DNA of 64,000 nucleotides from Candidatus Uhrbacteria bacterium (GCA_023246355.1 JAHFIQ010000001.1:222234-286233), one strand, 5' to 3'. Shown: positions 8,287 through 58,027, counted from the first letter of the stretch. The notes: generated from the sequence alone by a model not told the origin. Numbers and translations are program-made.

Positions 8287-9333
8287 TCAACCGTTCTTGA
8301 ACTTCATACGTTTTACCAAATTGAGTAGTCGCCTCTGATTCCTAAATTCCTGACCATGGTCGAAAGCCGACAAACAGGACTGAATTGTCTCACTGAAATT
8401 TTCCTCTAGGATGCCCGTATCCTCGTATTGCGCTACTAAATTCTCAACCCGTCCGAAAAGTCGTTTTCGCGTTGTTCTCCTCATTGTTCGTACCGTTGGT
8501 CTCAACACCCAACCAAGAAAGTCGACACCTTGTTGGTATGTCCGAATGGAAACCTTGTACGGATGAAGGCGCAAAAGTAGACGTCGTGAGAGATACGATT
8601 CAATTTGCAGAAGGGCTGATTCCAAAAACTGACGACTCTCGTGAAGGAGAATAAAATCATCACAAAACCGAATGTACCACCGTATCCTCAGGTGTTCCTT
8701 CACCCAATGGTCGAACGCATTGAGGTAGACGTTGGCAAAAAGTTGGCTGGTGACATTCCCAAGTGGGAGTCCGCACGATACCCCCTTGACAGACAAGTGG
8801 CTTGCTACGACTTGGCCTATAAGCCGCAACAATGGTTCATTGGTGACACGCCGTGCAAGCATCCCCATAAGCACATCGTGCTGTATCGAATCGAAAAATT
8901 TGGAGATGTCGCACTTGAGCGCATAAATGCGACGCGAGTCGTTACAGGATCCTCGTCTCAAAAAATCTTCAAGTCGGTCAATCGCCGCATGCGTCCCTTT
9001 TCCCTTACGCGAAGCAAACGAATCGAAAATGAAGGATGACTCGAAAGCCGGTTCCAAGACGTTCACAAGCGCCTGATGTACAACCCTGTCACGAACGCTT
9101 GCTTTGCTGATGTACCGACGTTTCGGATCATGAATATAAAATTGCTCATACCCACCGTGGAGATAGGATCCATTCTCAAGGTCGTGTACCAGATCAAACA
9201 ATTCATCCTCAAGCCTCATGGAAAATTGAAGCACATCTTGCTTGGCCATCTTTCCACAACTGAATACTTCCCAGGCATCAAACAAATTTTCTAACGAAAT
9301 AACTTCTTGTAGTGATCCGTTCCTATGAGTCAC
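8287..9333 (-). CDS. DGR reverse transcriptase
   Basis: 348 aa; LPLGNVTSQLFANVYLNAFD is the DGR-specific SQ variant of RT motif 4, and FCDD stands in for YxDD. Confidence 0.85.
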   Translation of the reverse strand: MTHRNGSLQEVISLENLFDAWEVFSCGKMAKQDVLQFSMRLEDELFDLVHDLENGSYLHGGYEQFYIHDPKRRYISKASVRDRVVHQALVNVLEPAFESSFIFDSFASRKGKGTHAAIDRLEDFLRRGSCNDSRRIYALKCDISKFFDSIQHDVLMGMLARRVTNEPLLRLIGQVVASHLSVKGVSCGLPLGNVTSQLFANVYLNAFDHWVKEHLRIRWYIRFCDDFILLHESRQFLESALLQIESYLSRRLLLRLHPYKVSIRTYQQGVDFLGWVLRPTVRTMRRTTRKRLFGRVENLVAQYEDTGILEENFSETIQSCLSAFDHGQEFRNQRRLLNLVKRMKFKNG

Positions 9334-9361
9334 CCCCCCCCCGACGGAGTTTGATCGATGG

Positions 9362-9736
9362 TTGACTGGATTCTCCGGTGAAGAATTCGGATTGGTTCAT
9401 AAATTGTATGAATGGTACAAGCTCCTGCACACCGATGTGATTAGGTTCCCCAAAACGGAACGATACACGATTGGTGAAGTGTTGAAGATGCGGACACTTC
9501 AGCTCATCGAAGGAATCTGGGAGGCGAACTCCCTACCACTCCCAGAACGCCTTGCCTTACTCGACCGACTACAACGATCACTCGACCTTATAAAAATCCT
9601 CATTCGCCTCACGTACGATCTAGGAATCTACAAACGTGATGGTTACATCTATCGGGAAAACCGACTCATGGAAATCGGTCGCATGCTCGGAAGTTGGCGA
9701 AAGAAGACACGAGGCCGCTTGGGTCTCGTGTCTTAA
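9362..9736 (+). CDS. avd: Avd-like accessory variability determinant (four-helix-bundle, TIGR02436-like)
   Basis: 124 aa, basic; LYEWYKLL, FPKTERYTIG and a C-terminal EIGRMLGSWRKK resemble Avd proteins. TTG start. It lies on the strand opposite to the RT and TR. Confidence 0.6.
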   Translation: MTGFSGEEFGLVHKLYEWYKLLHTDVIRFPKTERYTIGEVLKMRTLQLIEGIWEANSLPLPERLALLDRLQRSLDLIKILIRLTYDLGIYKRDGYIYRENRLMEIGRMLGSWRKKTRGRLGLVS

Positions 9737-9746
9737 CAGTTAACGG

Positions 9747-9867
9747 CTTCCACGGCACGGCCACCTTCATTGTCGTACGGGATCGAGAGATTGTCAGCGT
9801 CGTTCCTGTTGACCCTCACCTCGCCGTCGTTGTCGTTGGCGTTGAGAGCACCCTGGCCGAAGCGCGT
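9747..9867 (-). repeat. DGR template repeat (TR)
   Basis: 121-bp match to the VR. On the coding (minus) strand every one of the 18 differences is an A in TR (AAC codons N-A-N-D-N-D..N-R-N..). The 3' end carries the IMH*-like GGTGGCCGTGCCGTGGAAG. Confidence 0.85.
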
Positions 9868-10145
9868 TGCGCCGCTTCCTTCCTTACTCACCAGAGGGAA
9901 CCCATGGGTTGCCTCCTGAATTCCGGGATCCGGAAATGTATTCGGACGGACAGACTGTTTGGCGATCCGCCATAAAAGCGGCACGAAGTGGTTCAACTGT
10001 TTACTCACCGTTACCGACTTCTCCGATTATCATGAACCGGATGCTCGTGGGTAACAGCAGGATGTTGGTAACCAACAAGTTCTCGCTTATTGGTCTACAA
10101 ACCTTCACCAGCAGTATTGTAACAAGATCCAAAACAAAATTAATA

Positions 10146-10182
10146 GCCCTGCTCCGCTACCGCTTGGTAGCAAGAGCAGGGC
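10146..10182 (-). promoter_or_regulatory. GC-rich nested hairpin immediately 3' of the VR (DGR target-recognition hairpin and/or terminator)
   Basis: GCCCTGCTC-tt-GCTACC-aagc-GGTAGC-g-GAGCAGGGC, followed by a T-rich run. Confidence 0.6.
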
Positions 10183-10195
10183 AGGGGGTCAAGGT

Positions 10196-10942
10196 TCAAG
10201 CAGCATTCTTGACCACTTCCACGGCACGGCCACCCTCATTGCCGAACGGGATCGAGAGAGAGGCAGCGTCGCACCTGAAGACCCTCACCACGCCGCCGAG
10301 GTCGCAGGCGTCGAGAGCACCCCGGCCGAAGCGCGTGCGCAGCCAGCACCAGGTGCTGACGTCGATGTGCTCGCCGATGAGGTCGCGGTGCGTCCAGTAG
10401 ACGATCGCGTATTCCTCCAGCGAGAGGAGCTTCACCGCCGCGGTGAGGTCATTCCAGCTCGTATTGATCCGGGGGCACCTGGGAGCGATCTCCACAGTGA
10501 ACCAGTAACCAGCCTGGGCGATCTCCCAGCCGATCTTGGCACGGTCGTCGGCGTTCGCGACAGTCCAGTGATTGGACTGACCGTGCGCAATCATCCACCC
10601 TTCATAGGTCATCTCGACCGTCGACGGGCGGTAGAACAGCTCGCGACCTTCGCGGCGCCAGCGCTTGAGGGTCGTGTTGGAGACGCCGGGCCTGGGCACC
10701 GCGATCGTGAACCCGCGGGCGCGGAAGTTCGCCTCGATGGCGACACGGCGCTCCTCGGCCAGGTCGACCTTGGGCCTGTGGTCCTTCTCGCCGGCCTTTG
10801 CGCGAACTTCGGCCTCGCTGGTGCCGTCGATGATCGCCTGCAGGACAGTACGAGCAATCGCGGCCTTGGCCGGATCGGCGAGGGCGTGGCGTTGTGCTTC
10901 GTCAAACTGGCGCCGGAGCGCCAACTCAATCATGGCTTCCAT
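10196..10942 (-). CDS. DGR target protein (high GC; C-terminal C-type-lectin/FGE-like variable domain)
   Basis: VR sits at the C-terminus. Start chosen at MEAMIE, which has an AAGGAAAG SD; the ORF track extends to 11035. Confidence 0.7.
   Translation of the reverse strand: MEAMIELALRRQFDEAQRHALADPAKAAIARTVLQAIIDGTSEAEVRAKAGEKDHRPKVDLAEERRVAIEANFRARGFTIAVPRPGVSNTTLKRWRREGRELFYRPSTVEMTYEGWMIAHGQSNHWTVANADDRAKIGWEIAQAGYWFTVEIAPRCPRINTSWNDLTAAVKLLSLEEYAIVYWTHRDLIGEHIDVSTWCWLRTRFGRGALDACDLGGVVRVFRCDAASLSIPFGNEGGRAVEVVKNAA
10216..10336 (-). repeat. DGR variable repeat (VR) at the 3' end of the target gene
   Basis: Encodes TRFGRGALDACDLGGVVRVFRCDAASLSIPFGNEGGRAVE against the TR-encoded TRFGQGALNANDNDGEVRVNRNDADNLSIPYDNEGGRAVE. 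Confidence 0.85.
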
Positions 10943-11035
10943 GGTCTTTCCTTTGCTTGTGCCCATGTCGCGCCGGAGCGCAGAGGCACGTTTTGCCCCA
11001 AATTCCAGGCCGAACGCCCAGGTTGGAACCAACAA

Positions 11036-26286: not shown

Positions 26287-26623
26287 AAAGGAGTCTTTCT
26301 TTTTTTGTAGAAGAGATATTTCTCGCTTGAGACGAATCAAACGTAGAAATGGTTGTAGAGCTCGACCTATTAGTACTGCTCCGCTGAACGTCTTACGACG
26401 CTTACACGTACAGCCTATCAACCTCATAGTCTCTGAGGGGTCTCAAATGAAAACTAATCTTGGGAACGGCTTCGCACTTAGATGCTTTCAGCGCTTATCC
26501 GTACCGAACGTAGCTACCCGGCATTGCCCTTGGCAGGACAACCGGTACACGAGAGGTTCGTTCATTCCGGTCCTCTCGTACTAGGAATGAATTCCCTCAA
26601 TTTTCGATGCCCACGGCAGATAG

Positions 26624-26656
<33 letters not shown>

Positions 26657-26665
26657 ACTCACGTA

Positions 26666-26697
<32 letters not shown>

Positions 26698-27283
26698 AAC
26701 CTTCTCCAGCTCCAGGATGCGATGAGTCGACATCGAGGTGCCGAACCTCCCCGTCGCTGTGGACGCTTGGGGGAGACTAGCCTGTTATCCCCGGAGTAGC
26801 TTTTATCCGATGAGCTTCCGCCGTCCTATTTCGTACGGTCGGATCACTAACTTCTGCTTTCGCAACTGCTCGACTGGTCGGTCTCGCAGTAAAGCTGGCT
26901 TCTGGGTTTGCCCTTAGAGCGCGATTTCCATCCGCGCCAAGCCAACCTTTGTAAACGCCTCCGTTACATTTTAGGAGGCACCCGCCCCAGGTAAACTACC
27001 CACCAGATCCTGTCCCTGACTCCGGTTTCACGGAGTCTGGTTAGAATGCACACGACACAAGGGTGGTATCTCACTGGTGCCCGAAGGCTCCCACCTATTC
27101 TCAACATGTGATGCATGAACCCAAGATCAAGTTATAGTAAAGCTTCACGGGGTCTTTTCGTCTAGCCGCGGGTAGTGAGCATCTTCACTCACATTGCAAT
27201 TTCGCCGAGTCCATCGTTGAGAGAGTTCTCAACTTGTTATGCCATTCGTGCAGGACGGAACTTACCCGTCAAGGAATTTCGCT

Positions 27284-28002
27284 CGGGTCTGTTACACTCC
27301 CATTCATGGGAGGAGGTGATCATTTCTGTCACCTTCTGCATGTCACCATGCAGGTCGGACTATATCATCGTCTGTTAAGACGTTTGGCGTGTAGTCTCTG
27401 AGGATTCTAGAAATCGTGATGGAACCTTTCGGTTCATACTTTGAATAATGCGAGCAGCATCTTGAAGACCTTCAATTGTTTGATGTCGTCTGTTTTCCAT
27501 TAACTGTAAAACGGCGACAAACTTTTCGAAGTCTTCTTGTTTTGCTGTTCGTAATGGATGTTGAATGAAGAATGGGATGATCTTCAAACGAAGATCCCTC
27601 GTTGACCTCACACAATATCTCAGCAACGATTCGCGGTGATTGTCTGACCTTCGATTAAGATAGATCGATCCACACTGAAAGTGATCATGGATCAACTTCA
27701 GTGCCTCTCGACTCTTCTCACCTTGGGTTACGACAAACTCTGGGAACAATTGCCAGCCAAAGCTAGTGGTTGAATTACGGATCATGCTGACTGAGAAGCA
27801 ACCCTCTCCGTCGACAAATCCTACAATCCACCCAACGATATCTAGTCTTTCCTGCTGATTGTCTGGTCTATTAATCGCCATACTATGGCCGAATAATACC
27901 ATAGACCAGGTGTTCCAGCATATAGCCAAATTTTCTCTCTACATCTCCGCGGCAAACGAAGTTCAAGAGGAGGACATTCACCTCACTAAGGCAGTGTTAT
28001 TC
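27284..28002 (-). mobile_element. group I intron in 23S rRNA (inserted after ..GTCCTAAGGT, E. coli position about 1917) carrying a homing endonuclease gene
   Basis: The exon sequence is continuous when 27284..28002 is removed (GTCCTAAGGT | AGCGAAATTCCTTG). The intron ends in G and the upstream exon ends in U. Confidence 0.75.
27375..27929 (-). CDS. LAGLIDADG homing endonuclease
   Basis: IVGFVDGEGCF motif; lies wholly within the intron. Confidence 0.8.
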   Translation of the reverse strand: MAICWNTWSMVLFGHSMAINRPDNQQERLDIVGWIVGFVDGEGCFSVSMIRNSTTSFGWQLFPEFVVTQGEKSREALKLIHDHFQCGSIYLNRRSDNHRESLLRYCVRSTRDLRLKIIPFFIQHPLRTAKQEDFEKFVAVLQLMENRRHQTIEGLQDAARIIQSMNRKVPSRFLESSETTRQTS

Positions 28003-28856
28003 ACCTTAGGACGATTATAGTTATCGCCGGCGTTCATCCGCGCTTCAGTCGAAGGCTGCCGCCCTTGCGGGCTTGACCCCCTTCCTTAACGTTCGGACAC
28101 TGGCCAGGCATCAGCCCCTATACATCACCTTACGGTTTAGCAGGGACCTGTGTTTTTGGTAAACAGTCAGTTGAGATCTTTCGCTGCGGGTCGCATCCTC
28201 CCGGATGCAACCAGGCCTTATCCCGAAGTTACGGCCACTGTTTTGCCTAGTTCCTAAACGATGGTTCTCTCGTACGCCTTGGCACATTCACGTGCCCATC
28301 TACCTGTGTCGGTTTCCGGTACGGGTCTCTCTCACATAATCTTAGCAGCTTTTCTTGGCGCCCTGTCCTTTCCCCTTGTCAGTCCGATTGGACCAACTTG
28401 CGATTGTCTCCGTGCTCGAGATTGAACTCAGCTTGGCGGACTTCCCTACCAAGCGCCTAGAAACACCCAACGCTATAGCCATAGAGCGCGGGAAATTTCA
28501 GAACGCGTCCCTGCGTCAGTGTGAAAGAGAGTGCAGGAATAATAACCTGCTGTGCATCGACTACGCCTTTCGGCCTCGCCTTAGCTCCCGACTAACCCTG
28601 GGTCGATTCGCGTTGCCCAGGAAACCTTAGATTTACGGCGGACGGGATTCTCACCCGTCTTTTTGCTACTCATGCCAACATTCTCTCTTCGCATCGCTCC
28701 ACCCGTGGTCACCCACGAGCTTCAGTGCTGATACGAATGCTCCCCTACCGCGCCCTTCACTAACGTGAAGGACACCCTCAACTTCGGCACGTCATTTAGC
28801 CCCGGTACATTTTCGGCGCAAGAAAGCTTGACCAGTGAGCTGTTACGCTATCTTTA

Positions 28857-28894
<38 letters not shown>

Positions 28895-29511
28895 AGCCTT
28901 CTCACCACCTTTTACACTTAATGACGATTTAGGGGCCTTAGTTTGAGATCTGGGCTGTTGCCCTTTCGACCAATGGAGCTTCGCCCCCATGGTCTGACTG
29001 CCGGGAACACATAATGGTATTCGGAGTTTGGTTAGGCTCGCTAGCCGAAGCCGCTAAGCCCATTCAGTGCTCTACCCCCATTATGTTATTTACCGACGCT
29101 AGTCCAAAAACTATCTCGGGGAGAACCAGCTATTACCGAGTTCGATTGGAATTTCTCCGCTATCCACGCGTCATCCCCGACTTTTGCACAGGTCGTGGGT
29201 TCGGGCCTCCACGGGTTGTTACACCCGCTTCACCCTGCGCATGGATAGGTCACCCGGTTTCGGGTCGTGTGCGCGTCACACTCTATCTTTCTACTCGACC
29301 CCGCTTACCAAACTTGGCAGCGATTGAATCGAGTAGAGAGAAAGATCACGCGGGTTAACGCTCGCTTTCACTACGCCTTCGTCCCGGAGGACTTAAGCAA
29401 GCGACGCACAGCACACTCGTTGGCTCATTCTTCAATAGGAATGCCATCACCCCTTGCGAGGCTCTGACTCCTTGTAAGCATACGGTTTCAGATACTATTT
29501 CATTCCCCTCT

Positions 29512-29544
<33 letters not shown>

Positions 29545-30509
29545 GTTCACTATCGATCAGAACATGTATTTAGCCTTACCAGATAGTCCCGGCAGGTTCC
29601 TACAGGATTTCACGAGTCCCGTAGTACTCAAGGATGTCACTTATGATGGTGCGAATGAATTTCACATACAGGACTATCACCTTCTGTGGTTCTCTTTTCC
29701 AAGAGATTTTGTTATTCATCACACAGGTCCCATCACTCGTCTTTGAAAGAAGACGACCGTAACCCTTACAACCCCTACAACCACAACGGCTTCCACCTTT
29801 CGCCACCGTTTACATGTTGACTTGCGTCGCGATGCTCACCGTAACTTCATGATCGTAGGTTTGGGCTATTTCCTGTTCGCTCGCCGCTACTAAGGAAATG
29901 GATTCGCTTGCACGTTTCCACGCATCGAGAACTCGTGCGTAAAAATGTGAAACGAATAATACTTTTTCTTTTCCTCTGGGTACTGAGATGTTTCACTTCC
30001 CCAGGTTCCCTTCCTGCACCTATGTATTCAGTACAGGACCATGCGGCATTCCCCGCATGAGGTTTCCCTATTCGGAAATCTTCGGATCAAAGGTTGCTTG
30101 CCACCTCCCCGAAGCTTATCGCAGGCTGCTACGTCCTTCATCGGCACGTTCTGTCGAGCCATTCACCGTATGCCCTTATTAATGCTCTACAACCATTTCT
30201 AAATTCGATTTAGAGAATGGTGTATCTCTTCTACCCTATTGTTCAATTGTGAAAGGTCGTCTGGCCGATATGAGAGACGGCTCTATTCTTCGGTGCAGAT
30301 TTTGTCATCTGAACCCAAGGACACAAAAAACCGCGCAGGCGGTCTTCACCGTAACCAAAGTGTTTACGATAAGATCGCTCTGTCATCGTGAAACTTGTGT
30401 TACGTTTGTCATAGATGTGGTCTCCGTGAGCTCTCCCTCTCTTCAATCCCTCTGGATTCAGCCTCGGTTCAGGGGACAAAAGAGGAAGAACGTGTTTCAA
30501 ATTACTGGC

Positions 30510-50749: not shown

Positions 50750-51379
50750 ATGCTCCTCACGCGTCTCCTGCGCAGAAAAAAATCGAATGAGCCACGGACA
50801 GAGCACACGCGTTGGGTCCTGTTTCTTGTGATTGCGATTTTAGCGAGCACCGTTATCTTGAAACTAATAGACACAACGATAGCCCCTGCCCGTTCGCTCC
50901 TCGCCACGGCTCCTGGTCTTGTCGTGCTCTCAACCCTGGACCAACTCGGCGACACCTCGAGTCTTGCCATCACGCCGCCTACAGAAACAGTTGGTGGAGA
51001 GCTCTACGTCATTGGACTCTATAAGGAAATCAACAACGTCTTTCCAACCGGCACGGTCTCACTTGTGTATGTGAAAGATGGTTGGCGGACACTGGAAGTT
51101 GATTATCTACCAAATCGCACGCTACAGGACCAACTCGCCATGCTTTCTCTGTATCCCAGAGAGGAAGTCACGCTCAGCGAAACAACCTCTGCAACGATCC
51201 TAACACGTGACGACTCACCCAGATGCATCGACTACAATGATGGCCTCCCAAACAAATGTGAGATCACGCATCAGCTGCTCTTTGAAAACGAAGGCCTGCT
51301 TATTTCTCTCTCAAGCGACGGGGATCATGTGACGGTAGGTGAGCTGATTGAGATTGCAAAATCTTTCGCTGACCGGTAG
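50750..51379 (+). CDS. membrane-anchored hypothetical protein
   Basis: N-terminal TM segment; no motifs recognised. Confidence 0.35.
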   Translation: MLLTRLLRRKKSNEPRTEHTRWVLFLVIAILASTVILKLIDTTIAPARSLLATAPGLVVLSTLDQLGDTSSLAITPPTETVGGELYVIGLYKEINNVFPTGTVSLVYVKDGWRTLEVDYLPNRTLQDQLAMLSLYPREEVTLSETTSATILTRDDSPRCIDYNDGLPNKCEITHQLLFENEGLLISLSSDGDHVTVGELIEIAKSFADR

Positions 51380-51390
51380 TCTCTCTGCAA

Positions 51391-51479
51391 TGGAGAGGTC
51401 GCATAGTTGGTCTAGTGCGCGCGACTCGAAATCGCGTAACCCGCAAGGGTTCGAGGGTTCGAATCCCTCCCTCTCCGCC
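51391..51479 (+). tRNA. tRNA-Ser (anticodon CGA)
   Basis: Long variable arm; anticodon loop cTCGAAa; CCA encoded. Confidence 0.8.
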
Positions 51480-51635
51480 AATCCATTGAAGCCAACTGCT
51501 TGGCTTCAATGGATTGGTCACAGACAGAAAGAAGGGATTCGAACGCCGGAGCCATGCCACGCCGACTGTGTCGGGAGGCGTGGCGGCGAGGCGGTGGCCA
51601 GGCCGAGGAGGCGGAAGCCGACGAGAGCCGCGGCC

Positions 51636-51656
51636 GAATCCCTCCCTCTCCGCCAA
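51636..51656 (+). repeat. 21-bp direct repeat of the tRNA-Ser 3' end (GAATCCCTCCCTCTCCGCCAA)
   Basis: Identical to 51460..51480; the intervening 155 bp is GC-rich and begins with a perfect 13-bp-stem hairpin at 51481..51512. Confidence 0.7.
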
Positions 51657-51661
51657 GGTTT

Positions 51662-52384
51662 ATGGAAGTTCTCTTCATCTCACTCATCACCTTCATCGCG
51701 GCTACCGTTGGAACAACTACGGGTTTTGGGACTTCGACCCTGATGATTCCGATACTCGTGATGTTTTTGCCTCCAATTGAAACGATTTTTTTAGTGGCAA
51801 TCATTCACTGGTTTGGGGACATCTGGAAAATCGTCCTCTTTCGTTCTGGATTCCACCTCCGTTTACTTTTGCTCTTTGGTCTGGTTGGTCTCGCAACGAG
51901 TTATGTAGGAGCGTCTCTCACACTGGGAGTGAACGAACCACTTTTTTTGCGCCTGCTTGGTCTGTTTGTTGCAGGCTATGCCCTCTTTTTAGTTTTTCAA
52001 CCGAAATGGAAAGTCCCAGCTGGGGATCTTACAGCCGTAACTGGTGGAGCCTTATCAGGATTTTTTGCTGGATTGTTCGGTATTGGAGGAGCTATCCGCA
52101 GTTTATTTCTGACGATTTTTGACTTACCAAAAGCGATGTATCTCGCCACCGCCGGAGCCATTGGACTTCTCGTTGATTCAACCCGTATCATCACCTACTT
52201 CACTGAGGGAGTGACTCTCCCAAACAGGCTCTGGTGGGGACTCTTCCTGTTTATTCCCATTTCGTTTGTCGGCGCGCAAACCGCAAAAAAAATTGTGGAC
52301 AAAATTCCACAACCCATGTTCCGTGCGGTTGTTGCGTTCTTGCTTTTCGTCATCGGATTAAAACTCCTCTTGTTTCCATCGTGA
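51662..52384 (+). CDS. TauE/SafE-family (DUF81) sulfite/anion exporter
   Basis: Eight TM helices with GxGGG repeats. Confidence 0.6.
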   Translation: MEVLFISLITFIAATVGTTTGFGTSTLMIPILVMFLPPIETIFLVAIIHWFGDIWKIVLFRSGFHLRLLLLFGLVGLATSYVGASLTLGVNEPLFLRLLGLFVAGYALFLVFQPKWKVPAGDLTAVTGGALSGFFAGLFGIGGAIRSLFLTIFDLPKAMYLATAGAIGLLVDSTRIITYFTEGVTLPNRLWWGLFLFIPISFVGAQTAKKIVDKIPQPMFRAVVAFLLFVIGLKLLLFPS

Positions 52385-52444
52385 GTGCAATCTCTGGAAT
52401 CCTCAATACCTCTGAAGGCGAAAAACCGCTACAATGGTTCCCGT

Positions 52445-52996
52445 ATGAACCATTCAACCATCTACGCAGATGACGACAAGGAACCAGTATCGCTCTTGCT
52501 GCGGCTTAGAATGCCCTCTCTGCTGCTTGGACTTGTGCTTGGCATGGGCACCTCGTTTCTCACCTCCCGATTTGAAGAGGTGATCGCTGCAAATGTTCAC
52601 ACCGCGTTTTTCATTCCCTTTGTGGTCTACATCGCCGATGCGATCGGCACACAAACGCAAACCATCTATGCCCGTGACCTGAAGTCAGGCCACGCAAAAT
52701 TTAAAGCGTACCTCTTGAAAGAATCCGCCCTGGGTCTCATCCTTGGTTTGTTGTTTGGAGCTTCTTCCTTCGCGATCATCACCCTGTGGCTTCACGACAA
52801 CCTTCTGGCAATGAGTGTTGGCATCTCCGTTGTGTGTGTGATTATGACCGCGCCGCTCATTGCCCTGCTTGTCACACGATTTTTGAATGATCTTCACGAA
52901 GACCCGGCCGTTGGGTCAGGTCCCATTGCGACCGTGATCCAAGACGCGATCAGCATTCTGATCTACGGGAGCATCTTGAGTTTCTTCATTTTATGA
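52445..52996 (+). CDS. MgtE-family divalent cation transporter membrane domain
   Basis: PF01769-like TM pattern (IADAIGTQTQTI). Confidence 0.45.
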   Translation: MNHSTIYADDDKEPVSLLLRLRMPSLLLGLVLGMGTSFLTSRFEEVIAANVHTAFFIPFVVYIADAIGTQTQTIYARDLKSGHAKFKAYLLKESALGLILGLLFGASSFAIITLWLHDNLLAMSVGISVVCVIMTAPLIALLVTRFLNDLHEDPAVGSGPIATVIQDAISILIYGSILSFFIL

Positions 52997-54053: not shown

Positions 54054-54917
54054 ATGAAGATTCGAAAAGCGATTATTCCCGTGGCCGGCATGGGCACGCG
54101 GTTTCTCCCTGCCTCCAAGGCCCAACCCAAAGAAATGCTCGCGGTCGTGGACAAGCCCATCATCCAGTACATTGTGGAAGAAGCCGTGGCAAGCGGGATC
54201 GAAGAAATCATTTTTGTGACCTCCATTGGCAAGCGCGCCATAGAAGATCACTTTGATCGCAACTTCGAGCTTGAATATCGCTTGGAGCAAAAGAAAAAAA
54301 TGAAGGAACTCGACCAAGTGAAAGCCGTGGGCAAGCTCGCGAAGTTTGCCTTCGTCCGCCAGTCCAAACCTTTGGGTGATTGTCATGCCGTGCTCTCAGC
54401 TCTTCCCTTCATCGATGCCCATGAACCCGTTGCTGTTCTCTTTGGCGATGACATCATCGACGGAAAAATTCCTGCCCTGCGACAACTCATGGACGTGTAT
54501 GAAAAATACGGCGACCCGGTGGTCTCTCTGCACAAAGTCCCGAAAAAAATGGTACCGAGTTTCGGAGTGGTTGATGGAAAACGCTTGGACAAAAAAACCT
54601 GGGAGATCAGTCGGTTTGTTGAAAAGCCAACGCTCGCGCAAGCTCCGTCAGACTTGGTCGTGATCGGCCGATATATTCTCACACCAGAGGTTATGGCGCT
54701 CCTCACAAAAACCAAGCCAGGCCCAGACGGAGAAATTCGCCTCGCCGGCGCCTTCGAAGATTTGCTCGCACAAAAGAAGGCTCTCTACGGATGCATCTTT
54801 GAAGGCACCTGGTACAACTGTGGAAATAAATTTGGATTTTTGAAAGCGCAAATTGAACTTGGGCTCAAGCACCCAGAAACAGGAAAAGAGCTCAGACGCT
54901 ATCTTGCAACCGTATGA
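54054..54917 (+). CDS. galU: UTP--glucose-1-phosphate uridylyltransferase
   Basis: KAIIPVAGMGTRFLPASKAQPKEML N-terminal signature. Confidence 0.85.
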   Translation: MKIRKAIIPVAGMGTRFLPASKAQPKEMLAVVDKPIIQYIVEEAVASGIEEIIFVTSIGKRAIEDHFDRNFELEYRLEQKKKMKELDQVKAVGKLAKFAFVRQSKPLGDCHAVLSALPFIDAHEPVAVLFGDDIIDGKIPALRQLMDVYEKYGDPVVSLHKVPKKMVPSFGVVDGKRLDKKTWEISRFVEKPTLAQAPSDLVVIGRYILTPEVMALLTKTKPGPDGEIRLAGAFEDLLAQKKALYGCIFEGTWYNCGNKFGFLKAQIELGLKHPETGKELRRYLATV

Positions 54918-56284
54918 AAAATTTTTGGAGGTCCGTCATGGTGCTCATGCTCCCCGCTCTCATCTTGAGTGGCTGTGGAGGTTCAAGCGCAGCTCAGACG
55001 CTTGCTAGCAAACCTGTCACGATTACGATTTGGCGCGTGTTTGACGACAGCGATACGTTTCAAAGTCTCATGAGCGCCTACCAGGCCATCCACCCAAATA
55101 TTTCTTTTTCGTACAAAGAGCTTCGTTATGATGAATACGAAGATGAACTGATTCGCGCATTTGCTGAAGGCAAGGGTCCAGATATTTTTTCCCTGCACAA
55201 TACCTGGATTGGCGAATACGAAAGTTTGATCAAACCCTTGCCAAAATCTCTCTCCATTGCCTACGCTGAAACACGCGGCACGATCAAAAAAGAAACCGTT
55301 TACACAATAGAAGAAGAACCAACCATGTCTGAAAGGACCCTCAAGGCAGACTTCGTCGACGTGGTTGCCCAAGATGTCCTAAGGTCCTACAAAGCGAATG
55401 CAAAATCTGAATCTGAAGATCGCATATTCGCCTTGCCCCTTTCGATGGACACGCTGGCACTCTACTACAACAAGGATTTGCTGGACGCCGCTGGAATCGC
55501 AGAACCCCCTTCCACCTGGACCGAATTTCAAGACGACGTGACGCTGCTTACCAAAATCGGGAGCAACGACCAAATTCTCCAGGCCGGTGCGGCCATGGGA
55601 ACATCCCAAAACGTTGAACGCGCGTTTGATTTGGTCTCCCTGCTCATGATGCAAAACGGCACAGCCATGACCGACTCGCGTGACCGTCCGACCTTTGCCA
55701 ATGAAACAGACGCGGGATTTTTGGCTGGCGAGGCTGTACGTTTTTACACAGACTTCGCCAATCCTCTGAAAGCTGTCTACACCTGGAACGCACAGCAACC
55801 AAATTCGTTTGATGCGTTTGTGAACGGCAACTCCGCCTTTTTCTTTGGCTACTCCTACCACAACGCTTTCATCAAAACCGCCAACAGCAAACTTGATTTT
55901 GGCATTGCACCGATTCCGCAAATTGACGGAGGGAAAACCGTCAACTACGCCAACTACTGGGTGGAGACAGTGGCCAAATCAAGTGACGCTGGAGATTGGG
56001 CCTGGGACTTTGTGCAGTTTGCGGCACAGGAAGACAACGTCGACAGCTACTTAGAAGCCGCGAACAAACCCACGGCTCTGCGTGGCCTCCTTTCGACTCA
56101 ACTCGAAGACGAGGTCCTTTCTGTGTTTGCTGGTCAGGCACTCACAGCGGATTCGTGGTACAAAGGAAGCGACGCACAAGTCGCTGAAGATGCGTTCCTA
56201 GATCTCATTGATGCGATTCTTGCTGGCGACGAACAAGAAACAGCTCTCAAAGAAGCTCAGAACAAAGTGAGCCAAACGCTATGA
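54914..56284 (+). CDS. ABC transporter extracellular solute-binding lipoprotein (family 1, sugar-type)
   Basis: Lipobox LILSGCGG; SBP_bac_1-like length and pattern. Confidence 0.6.
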   Translation: MKNFWRSVMVLMLPALILSGCGGSSAAQTLASKPVTITIWRVFDDSDTFQSLMSAYQAIHPNISFSYKELRYDEYEDELIRAFAEGKGPDIFSLHNTWIGEYESLIKPLPKSLSIAYAETRGTIKKETVYTIEEEPTMSERTLKADFVDVVAQDVLRSYKANAKSESEDRIFALPLSMDTLALYYNKDLLDAAGIAEPPSTWTEFQDDVTLLTKIGSNDQILQAGAAMGTSQNVERAFDLVSLLMMQNGTAMTDSRDRPTFANETDAGFLAGEAVRFYTDFANPLKAVYTWNAQQPNSFDAFVNGNSAFFFGYSYHNAFIKTANSKLDFGIAPIPQIDGGKTVNYANYWVETVAKSSDAGDWAWDFVQFAAQEDNVDSYLEAANKPTALRGLLSTQLEDEVLSVFAGQALTADSWYKGSDAQVAEDAFLDLIDAILAGDEQETALKEAQNKVSQTL

Positions 56285-57024
56285 TGAATTTTTCTCGTCA
56301 TTTCAAAATGGGCTTCCTCGCGTTGCTTGGAATGACGCTAGCCTTAATGCCCTTCCCTGTCTTTGCCTACTCCTCAAATATCTGCACGGCTGGCAGCACT
56401 TGTGGAGCGAACGAAGTTGGTGTGTTCATGCAAGGCATTTCACTGGCCTGTGGCAACACCGGAGACTGTACGCTCAATGACATCATGCTGGTGTTTGTGA
56501 ACACCGGAAACTATGTCGTGGGTCTCATCGGTGGGATTGTGCTTCTCATGTACATCATTGGCGGCGTGTATTTCCTCACCTCAGCCGGAAACCCAGAACG
56601 CGTCAAAGAAGGAAAAAAATATCTCAGCATCTCCACAATCGGACTGCTCATTGTGATGTTTAGCTACCTTGGAATCTACGCACTAAAAGGCGTTCTTCAG
56701 GGAGGAACCTTCTCCGTGAGTGGTGACTATGTCGCCTGCACAGGGACCGACGCAAATGAAGGAGCTGCTTGCGATCTCAACAGCACTTGCGTGGAGGGAA
56801 TCTGTCTGAGTCAATGCGAACAAAATCACGCTGACAGTTACTCATATAGCTCCTCAACTGGCATCGCAAGTTTTTATACTTGTGTCGATAAAGATCACAC
56901 CGCAACGTCTCAATCAGAAAGTACGGATGGAACCTGGTACACAGGATCCTGCCAAACCAATCTCTGTCCAGGAGGGACAGGTACACAATGCTGCCTACTA
57001 AATAGAGTACAAAGCTCAGAGTAA
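56281..57024 (+). CDS. T4SS-pilin-like (TrbC/VirB2-like, PF18895-type) protein 1, with extra Cys-rich C-terminal extension
   Basis: Signal peptide plus the conserved two-TM core GGVYFLTSAGNPERVKEGKKYL..IGLLIVMFSY. Confidence 0.55.
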   Translation: MMNFSRHFKMGFLALLGMTLALMPFPVFAYSSNICTAGSTCGANEVGVFMQGISLACGNTGDCTLNDIMLVFVNTGNYVVGLIGGIVLLMYIIGGVYFLTSAGNPERVKEGKKYLSISTIGLLIVMFSYLGIYALKGVLQGGTFSVSGDYVACTGTDANEGAACDLNSTCVEGICLSQCEQNHADSYSYSSSTGIASFYTCVDKDHTATSQSESTDGTWYTGSCQTNLCPGGTGTQCCLLNRVQSSE

Positions 57025-57028
57025 TTTT

Positions 57029-57364
57029 ATGCAACGTTTTCTCATCATCTCCCTCGGTGCACTCTTGGCTTCACTCCCTCGTCTAAGCCACGCAGCCGCG
57101 CTCACGAACCCGCTTGGGACAACCGACCTCACGGTGATTATCGCCCGTCTTATCCAAGCCATCCTTGGCATCACTGGCGCGATTGCGCTTCTCATGTTCA
57201 TCTGGGGTGGATTCCAGTGGCTGATCTCTGCTGGATCTCCTGAGAAAGTAAAAAAAGGGAAAGAGACACTGACTTGGGCTGTAATCGGCTTGGCTGTCAT
57301 TGTTGGCGCCTACATGTTGGTCTCGGCTGTTGTGTCCGCCCTTGAATCCGGAACCCTTGCCTAA
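57029..57364 (+). CDS. T4SS-pilin-like protein 2
   Basis: WGGFQWLISAGSPEKVKKGKETL..IGLAVIVGAYM. Confidence 0.55.
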   Translation: MQRFLIISLGALLASLPRLSHAAALTNPLGTTDLTVIIARLIQAILGITGAIALLMFIWGGFQWLISAGSPEKVKKGKETLTWAVIGLAVIVGAYMLVSAVVSALESGTLA

Positions 57365-57493
57365 AACCTACTCCCTACAACCTACCCCCTTCCTGTGTGG
57401 ATATCTTTATTCGTTCAAATCCCCAAAAAGCTTTAGAATAATAGCAACCTAGTTTTTAACTTTTAAGCATTTCCTCTAAAGGAGGTGAAGCCT

Positions 57494-57952
57494 ATGTACA
57501 ACCTTGTTTCAAAAAAGCACATTGGATATTTCCTCGGTGCTGTTCTGGCTCTTTCGTTTGGTGCCATTGCCCTCATGGGTGTGCATCCTGTAGCAGCTCA
57601 AGATTCTGACTCTGCTCTTACAGCTGATGAACTCTTTGGCGGATCAACTGGTGATTCATTCGCTGCTTCCGCTGGTCTTGGTGACGCAAATTTGGTGGAC
57701 TCCATTGCGTCCATCATTCGTATCGCCTTAGGATTTCTGGGAGTCATCGCCGTGGTGATCATCTTGCTTGGTGGATTCAAGTGGATGACGGCCGGTGGCA
57801 ACGATGAAAAAGTAAAAGGTGCCAAAAAATTGATCTTCTCAGGTATCATTGGTTTGGTGATTGTCATCGCAGCTTACGCCATCGCGAGCTTTGTCATCGA
57901 TTCGATCATTTCTGCCACAAGCGACTCTTCTTCTTCCTCAAGTTCAGAATAA
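57494..57952 (+). CDS. T4SS-pilin-like protein 3
   Basis: GGFKWMTAGGNDEKVKGAKKL..IGLVIVIAAYAIASFVI; GGAGGTG SD 6 nt upstream. Confidence 0.55.
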   Translation: MYNLVSKKHIGYFLGAVLALSFGAIALMGVHPVAAQDSDSALTADELFGGSTGDSFAASAGLGDANLVDSIASIIRIALGFLGVIAVVIILLGGFKWMTAGGNDEKVKGAKKLIFSGIIGLVIVIAAYAIASFVIDSIISATSDSSSSSSSE

Positions 57953-58027
57953 ATCCTGTCCCCTATCCTCTGGATGGGGGCCTGCCCAGTGTCGCCACTT
58001 TGTTGTGACCCTGGGTGAGCCTCTTCT

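Follow-up and report, generated by a model that had tools for sequence, protein, structure and literature searches.

A candidate miniature insertion element behind the duplicated end of a tRNA-Ser gene in Uhrbacteria

What leaves a second copy of a tRNA gene's 3' end a short distance behind the gene itself? The question is raised by a tRNA-Ser(CGA) gene in a 64,000-nucleotide (nt) stretch of a Candidatus Uhrbacteria bacterium genome (GCA_023246355.1, JAHFIQ010000001.1:222234-286233), called the window here and numbered from its first letter. tRNA genes are classic landing sites of large integrase-borne islands, and here a footprint of the island type is left by a gene-free unit of about 150 nt with a conserved fold. 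This unit, named X, comprises positions 51482..51634 together with one 22-nt copy of the tRNA end, and it is, on balance, probably a complete small non-coding element that inserts in the T-loop and is widespread in Patescibacteria. Such an element would be mobile, currently or formerly, and non-autonomous. Patescibacteria have tiny genomes, in which selfish DNA should be costly.

The interval behind the tRNA-Ser gene

The tRNA-Ser(CGA) gene is called by both ARAGORN and Rfam and encodes its own CCA. Its end forms an exact direct repeat of 22 nt, CGAATCCCTCCCTCTCCGCCAA, with 153 nt between the two copies. An earlier note on this DNA had reported a duplication of 21 nt; the duplication stands, while the identity extends one base further to the left. 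That 21-mer has just two exact sites in the 64 kb, at 51461..51481 and 51636..51656, and 100 dinucleotide shuffles gave no match even with up to three mismatches tolerated. The interval was also rightly described as GC-rich, since positions 51550..51649 have a GC fraction of 0.74 against roughly 0.45-0.55 in the flanks. The perfect hairpin that had been placed at 51481..51512 with a stem of 13 base pairs (bp) is present, with different limits: the stem has 14 bp, formed by 51482..51495 with 51500..51513 around a CTGC loop, and it reaches 18 bp if the tRNA's CCAA (51478..51481) pairs with TTGG (51514..51517).

Two further properties of the interval had been overlooked. An inverted partial copy of the T-arm, GGGATTCGAA, lies at 51534..51543 and is the reverse complement of the tRNA T-loop and the first 3' bases of the T-stem. 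In addition, the whole interval folds far better than its shuffles, with z = -5.3 and -5.9 on the two strands. Neither BLAST nor a covariance model finds a second copy of the interval within the window; the family covariance model R1 gives a single window match (51474..51659, 118 bits, E = 6e-28), and X stands beside one of the five tRNA genes of the window.

The interval is non-coding, with no real open reading frame (ORF) in its 155 bp. Gene callers nevertheless set the start of the downstream TauE/SafE family gene at 51509, through the element, which adds 51 spurious codons. Reading 51509..51661 as a coding N-terminal extension of TauE is contradicted by the population variant L013, in which a C-to-T change at 51599 creates an in-frame TAG in the called extension, and by the Pfam domain, which begins at residue 8 of the 240-amino-acid (aa) form. 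X thus misleads gene callers into extending downstream genes.

A structured family beside tRNA and tmRNA genes

The first leads to relatives of the interval were weak BLAST matches to two loci with a GIY-YIG gene (L089 and L056; see below). Screening for tRNAs with a second, downstream copy of their 3' end brought up tRNA-Arg, Tyr, Glu and Ser genes with this layout next to them, and the segments CGCCGGAGC and GCGAGGCGGTGGCC, placed around a variable hairpin, proved common to two copies that belong to different classes, the window copy and the tRNA-Arg copy of a Moranbacteria genome (L050). Scanned once for exact matches to the pattern CGCCGGAGC-N(10-40)-GCGAGGCGGTGGCC, metagenome contigs yielded at least 120 stretches, and all family counts given here are among the matches listed. 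Roughly half of these stretches are chance matches in GC-rich coding DNA, and at least about 70 are real X. Sixty-six distinct copies were aligned with MAFFT, without fitting the alignment to structure, and the repeat could be mapped in 53 distinct copies.

Nearly all copies with enough upstream DNA have a same-strand tRNA gene no more than 130 nt upstream of them, and the hosts of the 53 mapped copies cover 16 amino-acid types (Table 1). In L178:249-750 (minus strand), X lies 38 nt downstream of a transfer-messenger RNA (tmRNA) gene and the tmRNA 3' end is repeated, so tmRNA genes, too, are targets of the family. Five copies come from genomes with a taxonomic label, and all of these genomes are Patescibacteria (L050, L056, L080, L089, L095). 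The covariance model also matches weaker relatives in L080, L089 and L056; more diverged look-alikes (L034, L029, L050-Ser, L031, L048, L087) escape it, which points to a broader superfamily. X is thus multi-copy and non-coding, and it carries no transposase of its own.

The copies share a fixed order of parts, read 5' to 3' on the tRNA strand. They often begin with a terminator-like hairpin, and often with a strand complementary to the CCA/acceptor end. GGA, the hairpin P0 (GCAAGCCAA-CUGC-UUGGCUUGC) and a G are followed by the 5' arm, which is complementary to the 3' strand of the T-stem and to the T-loop. Next come P2 (CGCC), GGA, the variable hairpin P2a, GA, the returning strand P2' (GGCG), a G, helix P3 with its inner hairpin P3a, and the direct copy of the tRNA 3' segment. 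Across the 66 copies, standard pairs fill 93.7% of the pair cells, against 34-44% when the partners are slid, and the covariation score of 0.44, which none of 500 shuffles reached, drops to 0.06-0.08 with slid partners. RNAalifold finds compensatory changes at 19 of 32 pairs; in the family alignment they occur at all nine pairs of P0 and at eight pairs of P2a. Helix P1, between the 5' arm and the direct copy, is paired in 88% over the 66 copies, and its pair opposite T-loop position 59 occurs as A-U, U-A, C-G and G-C. The inverted arms vary with the host tRNA (alignment pair 96:209). The closest comparison shows the same pattern on a small scale: the X copies of the window and of L095 are near-identical in P3 and in the repeat, and P2a of L095 differs by three double compensatory changes, from GCCACGCC/GGCGTGGC to GTCCCACC/GGTGGGAC. 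X is therefore a conserved structured family whose helices are backed by compensatory changes. The duplication had been taken for the att footprint of an element almost wholly deleted, an idea that does not survive, because the interval is a complete member of this family; the alternative offered at the same time, a miniature element, is supported by the intact conserved unit between the repeat copies.

The tRNA strand (+) is probably the acting strand, judging from three features of the copies. It folds better in seven of the eight clearest copies tested, P3 contains a conserved U.G pair, and the C51599U variant still pairs, as U.G. A minus-strand RNA was considered, since the A.C mismatches in P1 of the window copy would be G.U on that strand; the plus-strand folds, the U.G pair and C51599U outweigh this and favour the plus strand without settling the matter. 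The folded core may act as RNA.

Searches against Rfam 15 gave no match to X at E<=10 across 51300..51800, where the tRNA alone matches, at E<=1 in 12 loci, or at E<=0.01 in six loci, and tmRNA, ribozymes, the group I intron, signal recognition particle RNA and 5S-like RNAs were rejected as identities on this basis. Phage and plasmid collections contained no match to X either; five pattern matches in viral contigs look like chance matches in GC-rich coding DNA. In the literature, no description was found of X or of a linkage between GIY-YIG genes and tRNA-Ser. X is accordingly undescribed in Rfam 15 and in the literature searched.

Insertion in the T-loop and competing explanations

Filled and empty versions of the tRNA-Ser locus can be compared among relatives. 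In L094 and L228, a homologue of the neighbouring 209-aa gene is followed by a terminator and then by an intact, inverted tRNA-Ser(CGA). L095 shares the flank of L094 and L228 and the following 21 nt, after which comes X, and the alignment breaks exactly at T55|C56. This break places X in the T-loop and makes the distal copy the native 3' end left behind. L096 and L099 also lack X, so that the element is present at tRNA-Ser in the window and L095 and absent from L094, L096, L099 and L228. More widely, the repeat begins at T-loop C56 in 43 of the 53 mapped loci, where the tRNA's own copy follows GGTT and the distal copy follows GAGGC or GCGGC of X. Its length has a mode of 19 nt and a range of 10-83 nt; most repeats stop within a few bases of the tRNA end, and in three loci the repeat continues for 58-83 nt through the terminator. 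The breakpoint thus lies at T55|C56, and X has a patchy presence among relatives.

These comparisons lend support to the earlier proposal of an insertion into the tRNA gene, with the 3' end regenerated and the old fragment displaced. The related loci supplied both filled and empty tRNA-Ser sites. A repeat shared by all relatives as a conserved intergenic structure, for example a terminator array, is at odds both with the four relatives that lack X and with the lack of any terminator-like site in 51000..52000.

The two repeat copies differ in their fit to the rest of the element. Wherever the fits differ, in ten of ten loci, the 5' arm fits the live tRNA better than it fits copy 2, and several of them (L104, L173, L180, L208) show an obviously decayed distal copy. 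Copy 2 is therefore a decaying relic. Recombination traces are found as well. In L111 (oriented 929-1370), a Ser-type 3' end is joined to tRNA-Asp positions 36-55; downstream lie a complementary strand of Ser type, P0 and the X core, and the Asp 3' end comes last. This scrambled tRNA-Asp locus, with its partial tRNA copies and an Asp/Ser chimeric T-arm junction, appears to record recombination in the T-arm. Tandem or nested X-like units, two behind one tRNA, occur at L126:1544-2000 and L165:1760-2202. A plain target-site duplication was rejected as the origin of the repeat, as the copies in L111 come from different tRNA types and the right end is variable. A reverse-transcribed mature tRNA, similar to a primer-binding site, was rejected as well: at genes without an encoded CCA, the repeat reproduces the flank of that gene (for example GCAA or ACAAA) and not CCA, and in some loci it enters the terminator.

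A mechanism for the insertion can be outlined from this anatomy. X would enter between T55 and C56 of a tRNA or tmRNA gene, which would stay intact through a full copy of the 3' end (C56 to CCA) on the tRNA side. The original 3' end, displaced by about 155 nt downstream and no longer needed, would decay slowly, a logic like that of attL and attR in tRNA-integrating islands. The element itself is built from P0, a three-way junction (P2/P2a and P3/P3a) and, in one or two strands, sequence complementary to the host tRNA's 3' segment. A site-specific recombinase acting in trans would cross over in the conserved T-arm and move X, and the folded arms could possibly rebuild a duplex copy of the target. 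The expected empty-site junction would be tRNA-Ser ...CTCTCCGCCAAGGTTTATGGAAG with a single repeat, and the expected circle junction ...GCCGCGGC|CGAATCCCTCCCTCTCCGCCAATCCATTG without tRNA positions 1-55.

Several known systems resemble this scheme in part. Islands at tRNA and tmRNA genes are described as restoring the gene and leaving a displaced fragment (PMC4383910), and the attB of phage Ms6 is placed within a tRNA T-loop (PMC1762012). Like the tyrosine-integrase islands covered there (Islander, PMC4383910; mycobacteriophage Ms6, PMC1762012), X targets the 3' part of a tRNA or tmRNA gene with a breakpoint in the T-loop, regenerates the gene, has its far end marked by a displaced fragment of about 20 nt, and shares a site for which several elements compete. 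Unlike them, X measures 130-160 bp and has no integrase, cargo or linked gene; it has a covarying three-way-junction fold and strands complementary to the tRNA 3' segment, and one X family occupies at least 16 tRNA types, whereas the attP of an island is normally tied to one. [quoted passage not shown] X differs from MITEs in lacking element-specific terminal inverted repeats, as its arms are target-derived, in a duplication of about 19-22 nt set by tRNA landmarks instead of a short target-site duplication of fixed length, and in its strict T-loop specificity. tRNA-gene introns of the same phylum are also RNA-structured insertions in tRNA genes. Their site is the anticodon loop (35/36, for example), and they break up the gene and need splicing; X lies at 55/56 behind a complete tRNA, is far smaller and has no Rfam intron match. 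In the attP(+) of CTX phage and in integron attC sites, two inverted target-like copies about 90 nt apart can form a hairpin mimicking the duplex target, and the integrated form keeps both beside a hybrid site. The paired arms of X may be similar, by analogy only, with any role of Xer or IntI hypothetical, and the GNRA-type loops and G.U pairs of X point at least equally to RNA.

Some observations weigh against a mobile element. No integrase was found in or next to the window element, whose neighbours are TauE, a PIN protein and the 209-aa protein without a Pfam match; the 20 window ORFs tested include no recombinase, and no protein family recurs beside about 60 X copies. Because no mobilising protein, recombinase or other, was identified in the window ORFs or in the X neighbourhoods, movement of X is deduced from its distribution and was not observed. 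The closest comparison of filled and empty sites is between species whose neighbouring protein is about 72-77% identical to that of the window, and no strain pair with and without X is available at the window locus. The repeat has no fixed right end, its length ranging from 10 to 83 nt. Arms matched to more than 16 tRNA types are not explained by simple target-site duplication or by Campbell integration with a fixed attP. The X copies beside tRNA-Arg(GCG) are near-identical in five different contigs, variable hairpins included, which suggests long vertical residence and not frequent hopping. The invariance of P2 is uninformative, as the search pattern itself required P2, and the strand signal is weak, at 42 G.U against 31 A.C pair cells with one conserved U.G pair excluded. 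The matching of the arms and the variable right end are gaps that leave room for two other kinds of explanation, an RNA of the tRNA trailer and a guide.

According to the first, which is unlikely, X is not mobile and is a cis-encoded functional RNA in the tRNA trailer, for example with a processing, quality-control or regulatory role, that co-evolves with its own tRNA; the arm would pair with that tRNA's T-arm, and the duplicate 3' end would serve as an inbuilt mimic or decoy. The strong structural covariation and the conserved junction agree with such a role, as do the tracking of the live tRNA by the 5' arm in all ten informative loci, the better plus-strand folds, the conserved U.G pair with its C51599U counterpart, and the vertical inheritance suggested by the tRNA-Arg(GCG) copies. 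A trailer RNA is harder to reconcile with the presence of X beside just one of five window tRNAs, with its absence from the orthologous tRNA-Ser of L094, L096, L099 and L228, and with the decay of copy 2 in several loci. Moreover, strong terminators separate the tRNA from X in many loci (for example L116, L136 and L210), and the chimeric or tandem arrangements in L111, L126 and L165 resemble recombination products. If X is nevertheless a functional tRNA-linked RNA, it represents an uncatalogued and widespread RNA family.

It is quite unlikely that X represents a programmable class of mobile elements free of protein genes, or a tRNA mimic, with arms that direct insertion at T55|C56 through a guided enzyme or a ribozyme; were this true, re-matched arms would let one family colonise all tRNA types and tmRNA in Patescibacteria. 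An improbable variant has the arms, as RNA or as folded single-stranded DNA, guide the insertion themselves, with the enzyme encoded elsewhere or the chemistry performed by a ribozyme. Guidance would fit arms that complement the target segment and bound the duplicated region, a conserved scaffold with variable, seemingly programmable arms over 16 tRNA types and tmRNA, and the failure to find a linked protein. It is inferred from anatomy alone and has no identified partner enzyme; X shows no similarity to Rfam ribozyme, intron or guide-RNA families, and its arms use the same positions to pair with one another, a feature that sets X apart from known bridge or guide RNAs.

It is very improbable that X is what remains of a large island or prophage that carried an integrase and was almost fully deleted between its att sites. 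A direct repeat from T-loop to 3' end is the classical island footprint (PMC4383910), but at least about 70 independent copies share a length class, helices and core, and random deletions would not converge on a single structured unit of 130-160 nt; pseudogene fragments are absent, given that the GIY-YIG comparison described below found nothing significant and the only long frame has a stop in L013. A local replication accident at the palindromic T-arm/terminator hairpin (snap-back, or tandem-inversion duplication) without any foreign element is hardly credible: the order of 3' end, hairpin, inverted partial copy and direct copy does resemble a tandem-inversion duplication, and the hairpin stem continues into the tRNA's CCAA, yet neither the core of about 95 nt nor the P0 apex has a counterpart in the tRNA, and both are conserved at unrelated loci.

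If X is the mobile T-loop element favoured here, it defines a new miniature class of tRNA-targeting elements and raises the questions of the agent that moves it and of the way in which its arms are matched to each tRNA.

Table 1. Parts of the window copy of X, its surroundings, GIY-YIG cassette loci and host genes of the family (positions are those of the window unless a locus is named)
Feature	Position	Strand	Basis
tRNA-Ser(CGA) gene with encoded CCA, host or target	51392..51480	+	ARAGORN; Rfam tRNA, 57.1 bits
Repeat copy 1, CGAATCCCTCCCTCTCCGCCAA, T-loop C56 to CCA plus one A, working tRNA 3' end	51460..51481	+	exact repeat
Hairpin P0, 14-bp perfect stem, CTGC loop, extendable to 51478..51517 (CCAA/TTGG)	51482..51513	+	sequence; family covariation
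P0 apex, GCCAACTGCTTGGC, equal to the family consensus	51491..51504	+	family alignment
Spacer; TTGG at 51514..51517 complements the CCAA ending either repeat copy	51514..51533	+	sequence; analogous closing strands in other copies
5' arm, GGGATTCGAA	51534..51543	+	complementarity to T-loop and T-stem
Helix P1, GGGATT with AATCCC	51534..51539 with 51637..51642	+	sequence, fold
Core: P2 (CGCC/GGCG), GGA/GA internal loop, variable hairpin P2a, start of P3 (TGGCC)	51544..51599	+	pattern match
Core pattern as matched, CGCCGGAGC-N33-GCGAGGCGGTGGCC	51544..51599	+	pattern scan
Variable hairpin P2a	51551..51587	+	covariation, double changes against L095
Helix P3 with inner hairpin P3a, GGAA loop at 51613..51616	51595..51636	+	fold, covariation
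Conserved U.G pair in P3	51595:51636	+	family alignment
Repeat copy 2, read as displaced native tRNA 3' end (attR-like)	51635..51656	+	analogy: L095 against L094/L228
Whole element, extent by covariance model R1	51474..51659	+	118 bits, E = 6e-28
TauE/SafE family gene, start ATG 51662, outside the element	51662..52384	+	Pfam TauE, residues 8-235 of the 240-aa form
GIY-YIG cassette, allele of window 51480 onward	L003:6731-6934
GIY-YIG cassette, further loci	L010:7781-8280; L014-L093
Host tRNAs of X: Ser 11, Leu 10, Arg 9, Pro 7, Gly 6			53 mapped copies
Host tRNAs of X: Lys 3, Val 3, Asp 2, Glu 2			53 mapped copies
Host tRNAs of X: Gln, Asn, Ile, Met, Phe, Ala and Thr, 1 each			53 mapped copies

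A second occupant of the site and neighbouring features

The tRNA-Ser site of the window also accommodates a different cassette. Contigs that encode the identical upstream protein form two classes, the first of which has the window sequence. The second (L003 and six similar contigs) diverges after ...CTCTCCGCC, at window position 51479, and opens a GIY-YIG gene. In the same sample, contig L009 begins exactly 140 nt (k-1) before the point of divergence and continues as the window sequence, which indicates a branch of the assembly graph at the tRNA 3' end. The contigs of this GIY-YIG allele all end inside the multi-copy GIY gene, and the far end was not recovered from them. Both X and the GIY-YIG cassettes break metagenome assemblies at tRNA genes.

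Proteins of the GIY-YIG family have 78 aa, match Pfam PF01541 and lack a DNA-binding domain. Among species genomes of GTDB, 64 of 75 copies lie 65-372 nt (median 102 nt) downstream of a same-strand tRNA-Ser with any Ser anticodon, and the family occurs in Patescibacteria, Bacteroidota, Gammaproteobacteria and Bdellovibrionales, among others. The cassette starts directly after ...CCGCC with a conserved two-hairpin leader; this may be the CCGCC of the tRNA or that of the repeat of X (L031, L114). A few loci show a decayed second copy of the tRNA end behind the GIY-YIG ORF. Like free-standing GIY-YIG homing-endonuclease cassettes, the one at this locus is a small GIY-YIG gene at a fixed point, here after the tRNA-Ser end.

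X was considered as a remnant of this cassette and rejected, since the two have no protein or DNA similarity beyond the tRNA end and can occur in either order (L089, L031, L114); a tblastn comparison of the GIY-YIG protein set with the interval gave nothing significant. The cassette is a separate element and a second occupant of the window tRNA-Ser site, and the nuclease activity and homing of its 78-aa protein are putative.

The genome belongs to the Patescibacteria and stands close to Candidatus Uhrbacteria, as indicated by its enlarged 23S rRNA gene (see below) and by homologues of the neighbouring 209-aa protein, which are named Uhrbacteria. When window positions 50750-52445 are set against L094, L096, L099 and L229, the stretch from the 209-aa gene to an MgtE-domain gene is different in each, containing a Fic protein, a 155-aa ORF, a LAGLIDADG endonuclease with small ORFs, or, in the window, TauE; the relatives carry the tRNA-Ser in the orientation opposite to that of the window. 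The region around tRNA-Ser therefore looks like a local hot spot of rearrangement.

At five loci (L195, about 2.3 kb; L095:3830-3900; L150; L202; L056:330-370), no recognisable tRNA stands upstream of X or of the GIY cassette, and neither ARAGORN nor Rfam finds a match there. These loci share the ending ...(G)TTCGAA(C/T)TTTGT(C/A)CAA..ACACCGCC(A), and L195 and L056 additionally share an upstream ...TTCCTCCCCAGACCCCTCCT... region. The motif may belong to an unrecognised tRNA-like RNA gene.

Elsewhere in the window, positions 8287-11035 hold a diversity-generating retroelement with an RVT_1 reverse transcriptase ORF (8287..9333, minus), a template repeat at 9740..9867 and, within an ORF on the minus strand, a variable repeat at 10209..10336; of the 21 mismatches between the repeats, 18 fall at a template T on the plus strand, which is A on the minus strand. 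The 23S rRNA gene (26349-30194) has 3846 nt against a model of 2925 positions, with about 900 nt of insertions, as is common in bacteria of the candidate phyla radiation, and a 184-aa ORF (27375..27929, minus) lies inside it. A few kb downstream of X, at 54914-58000, the gene tables of L001 and L007 list a cluster of small genes with T4SS_pilin and TrbC Pfam matches.
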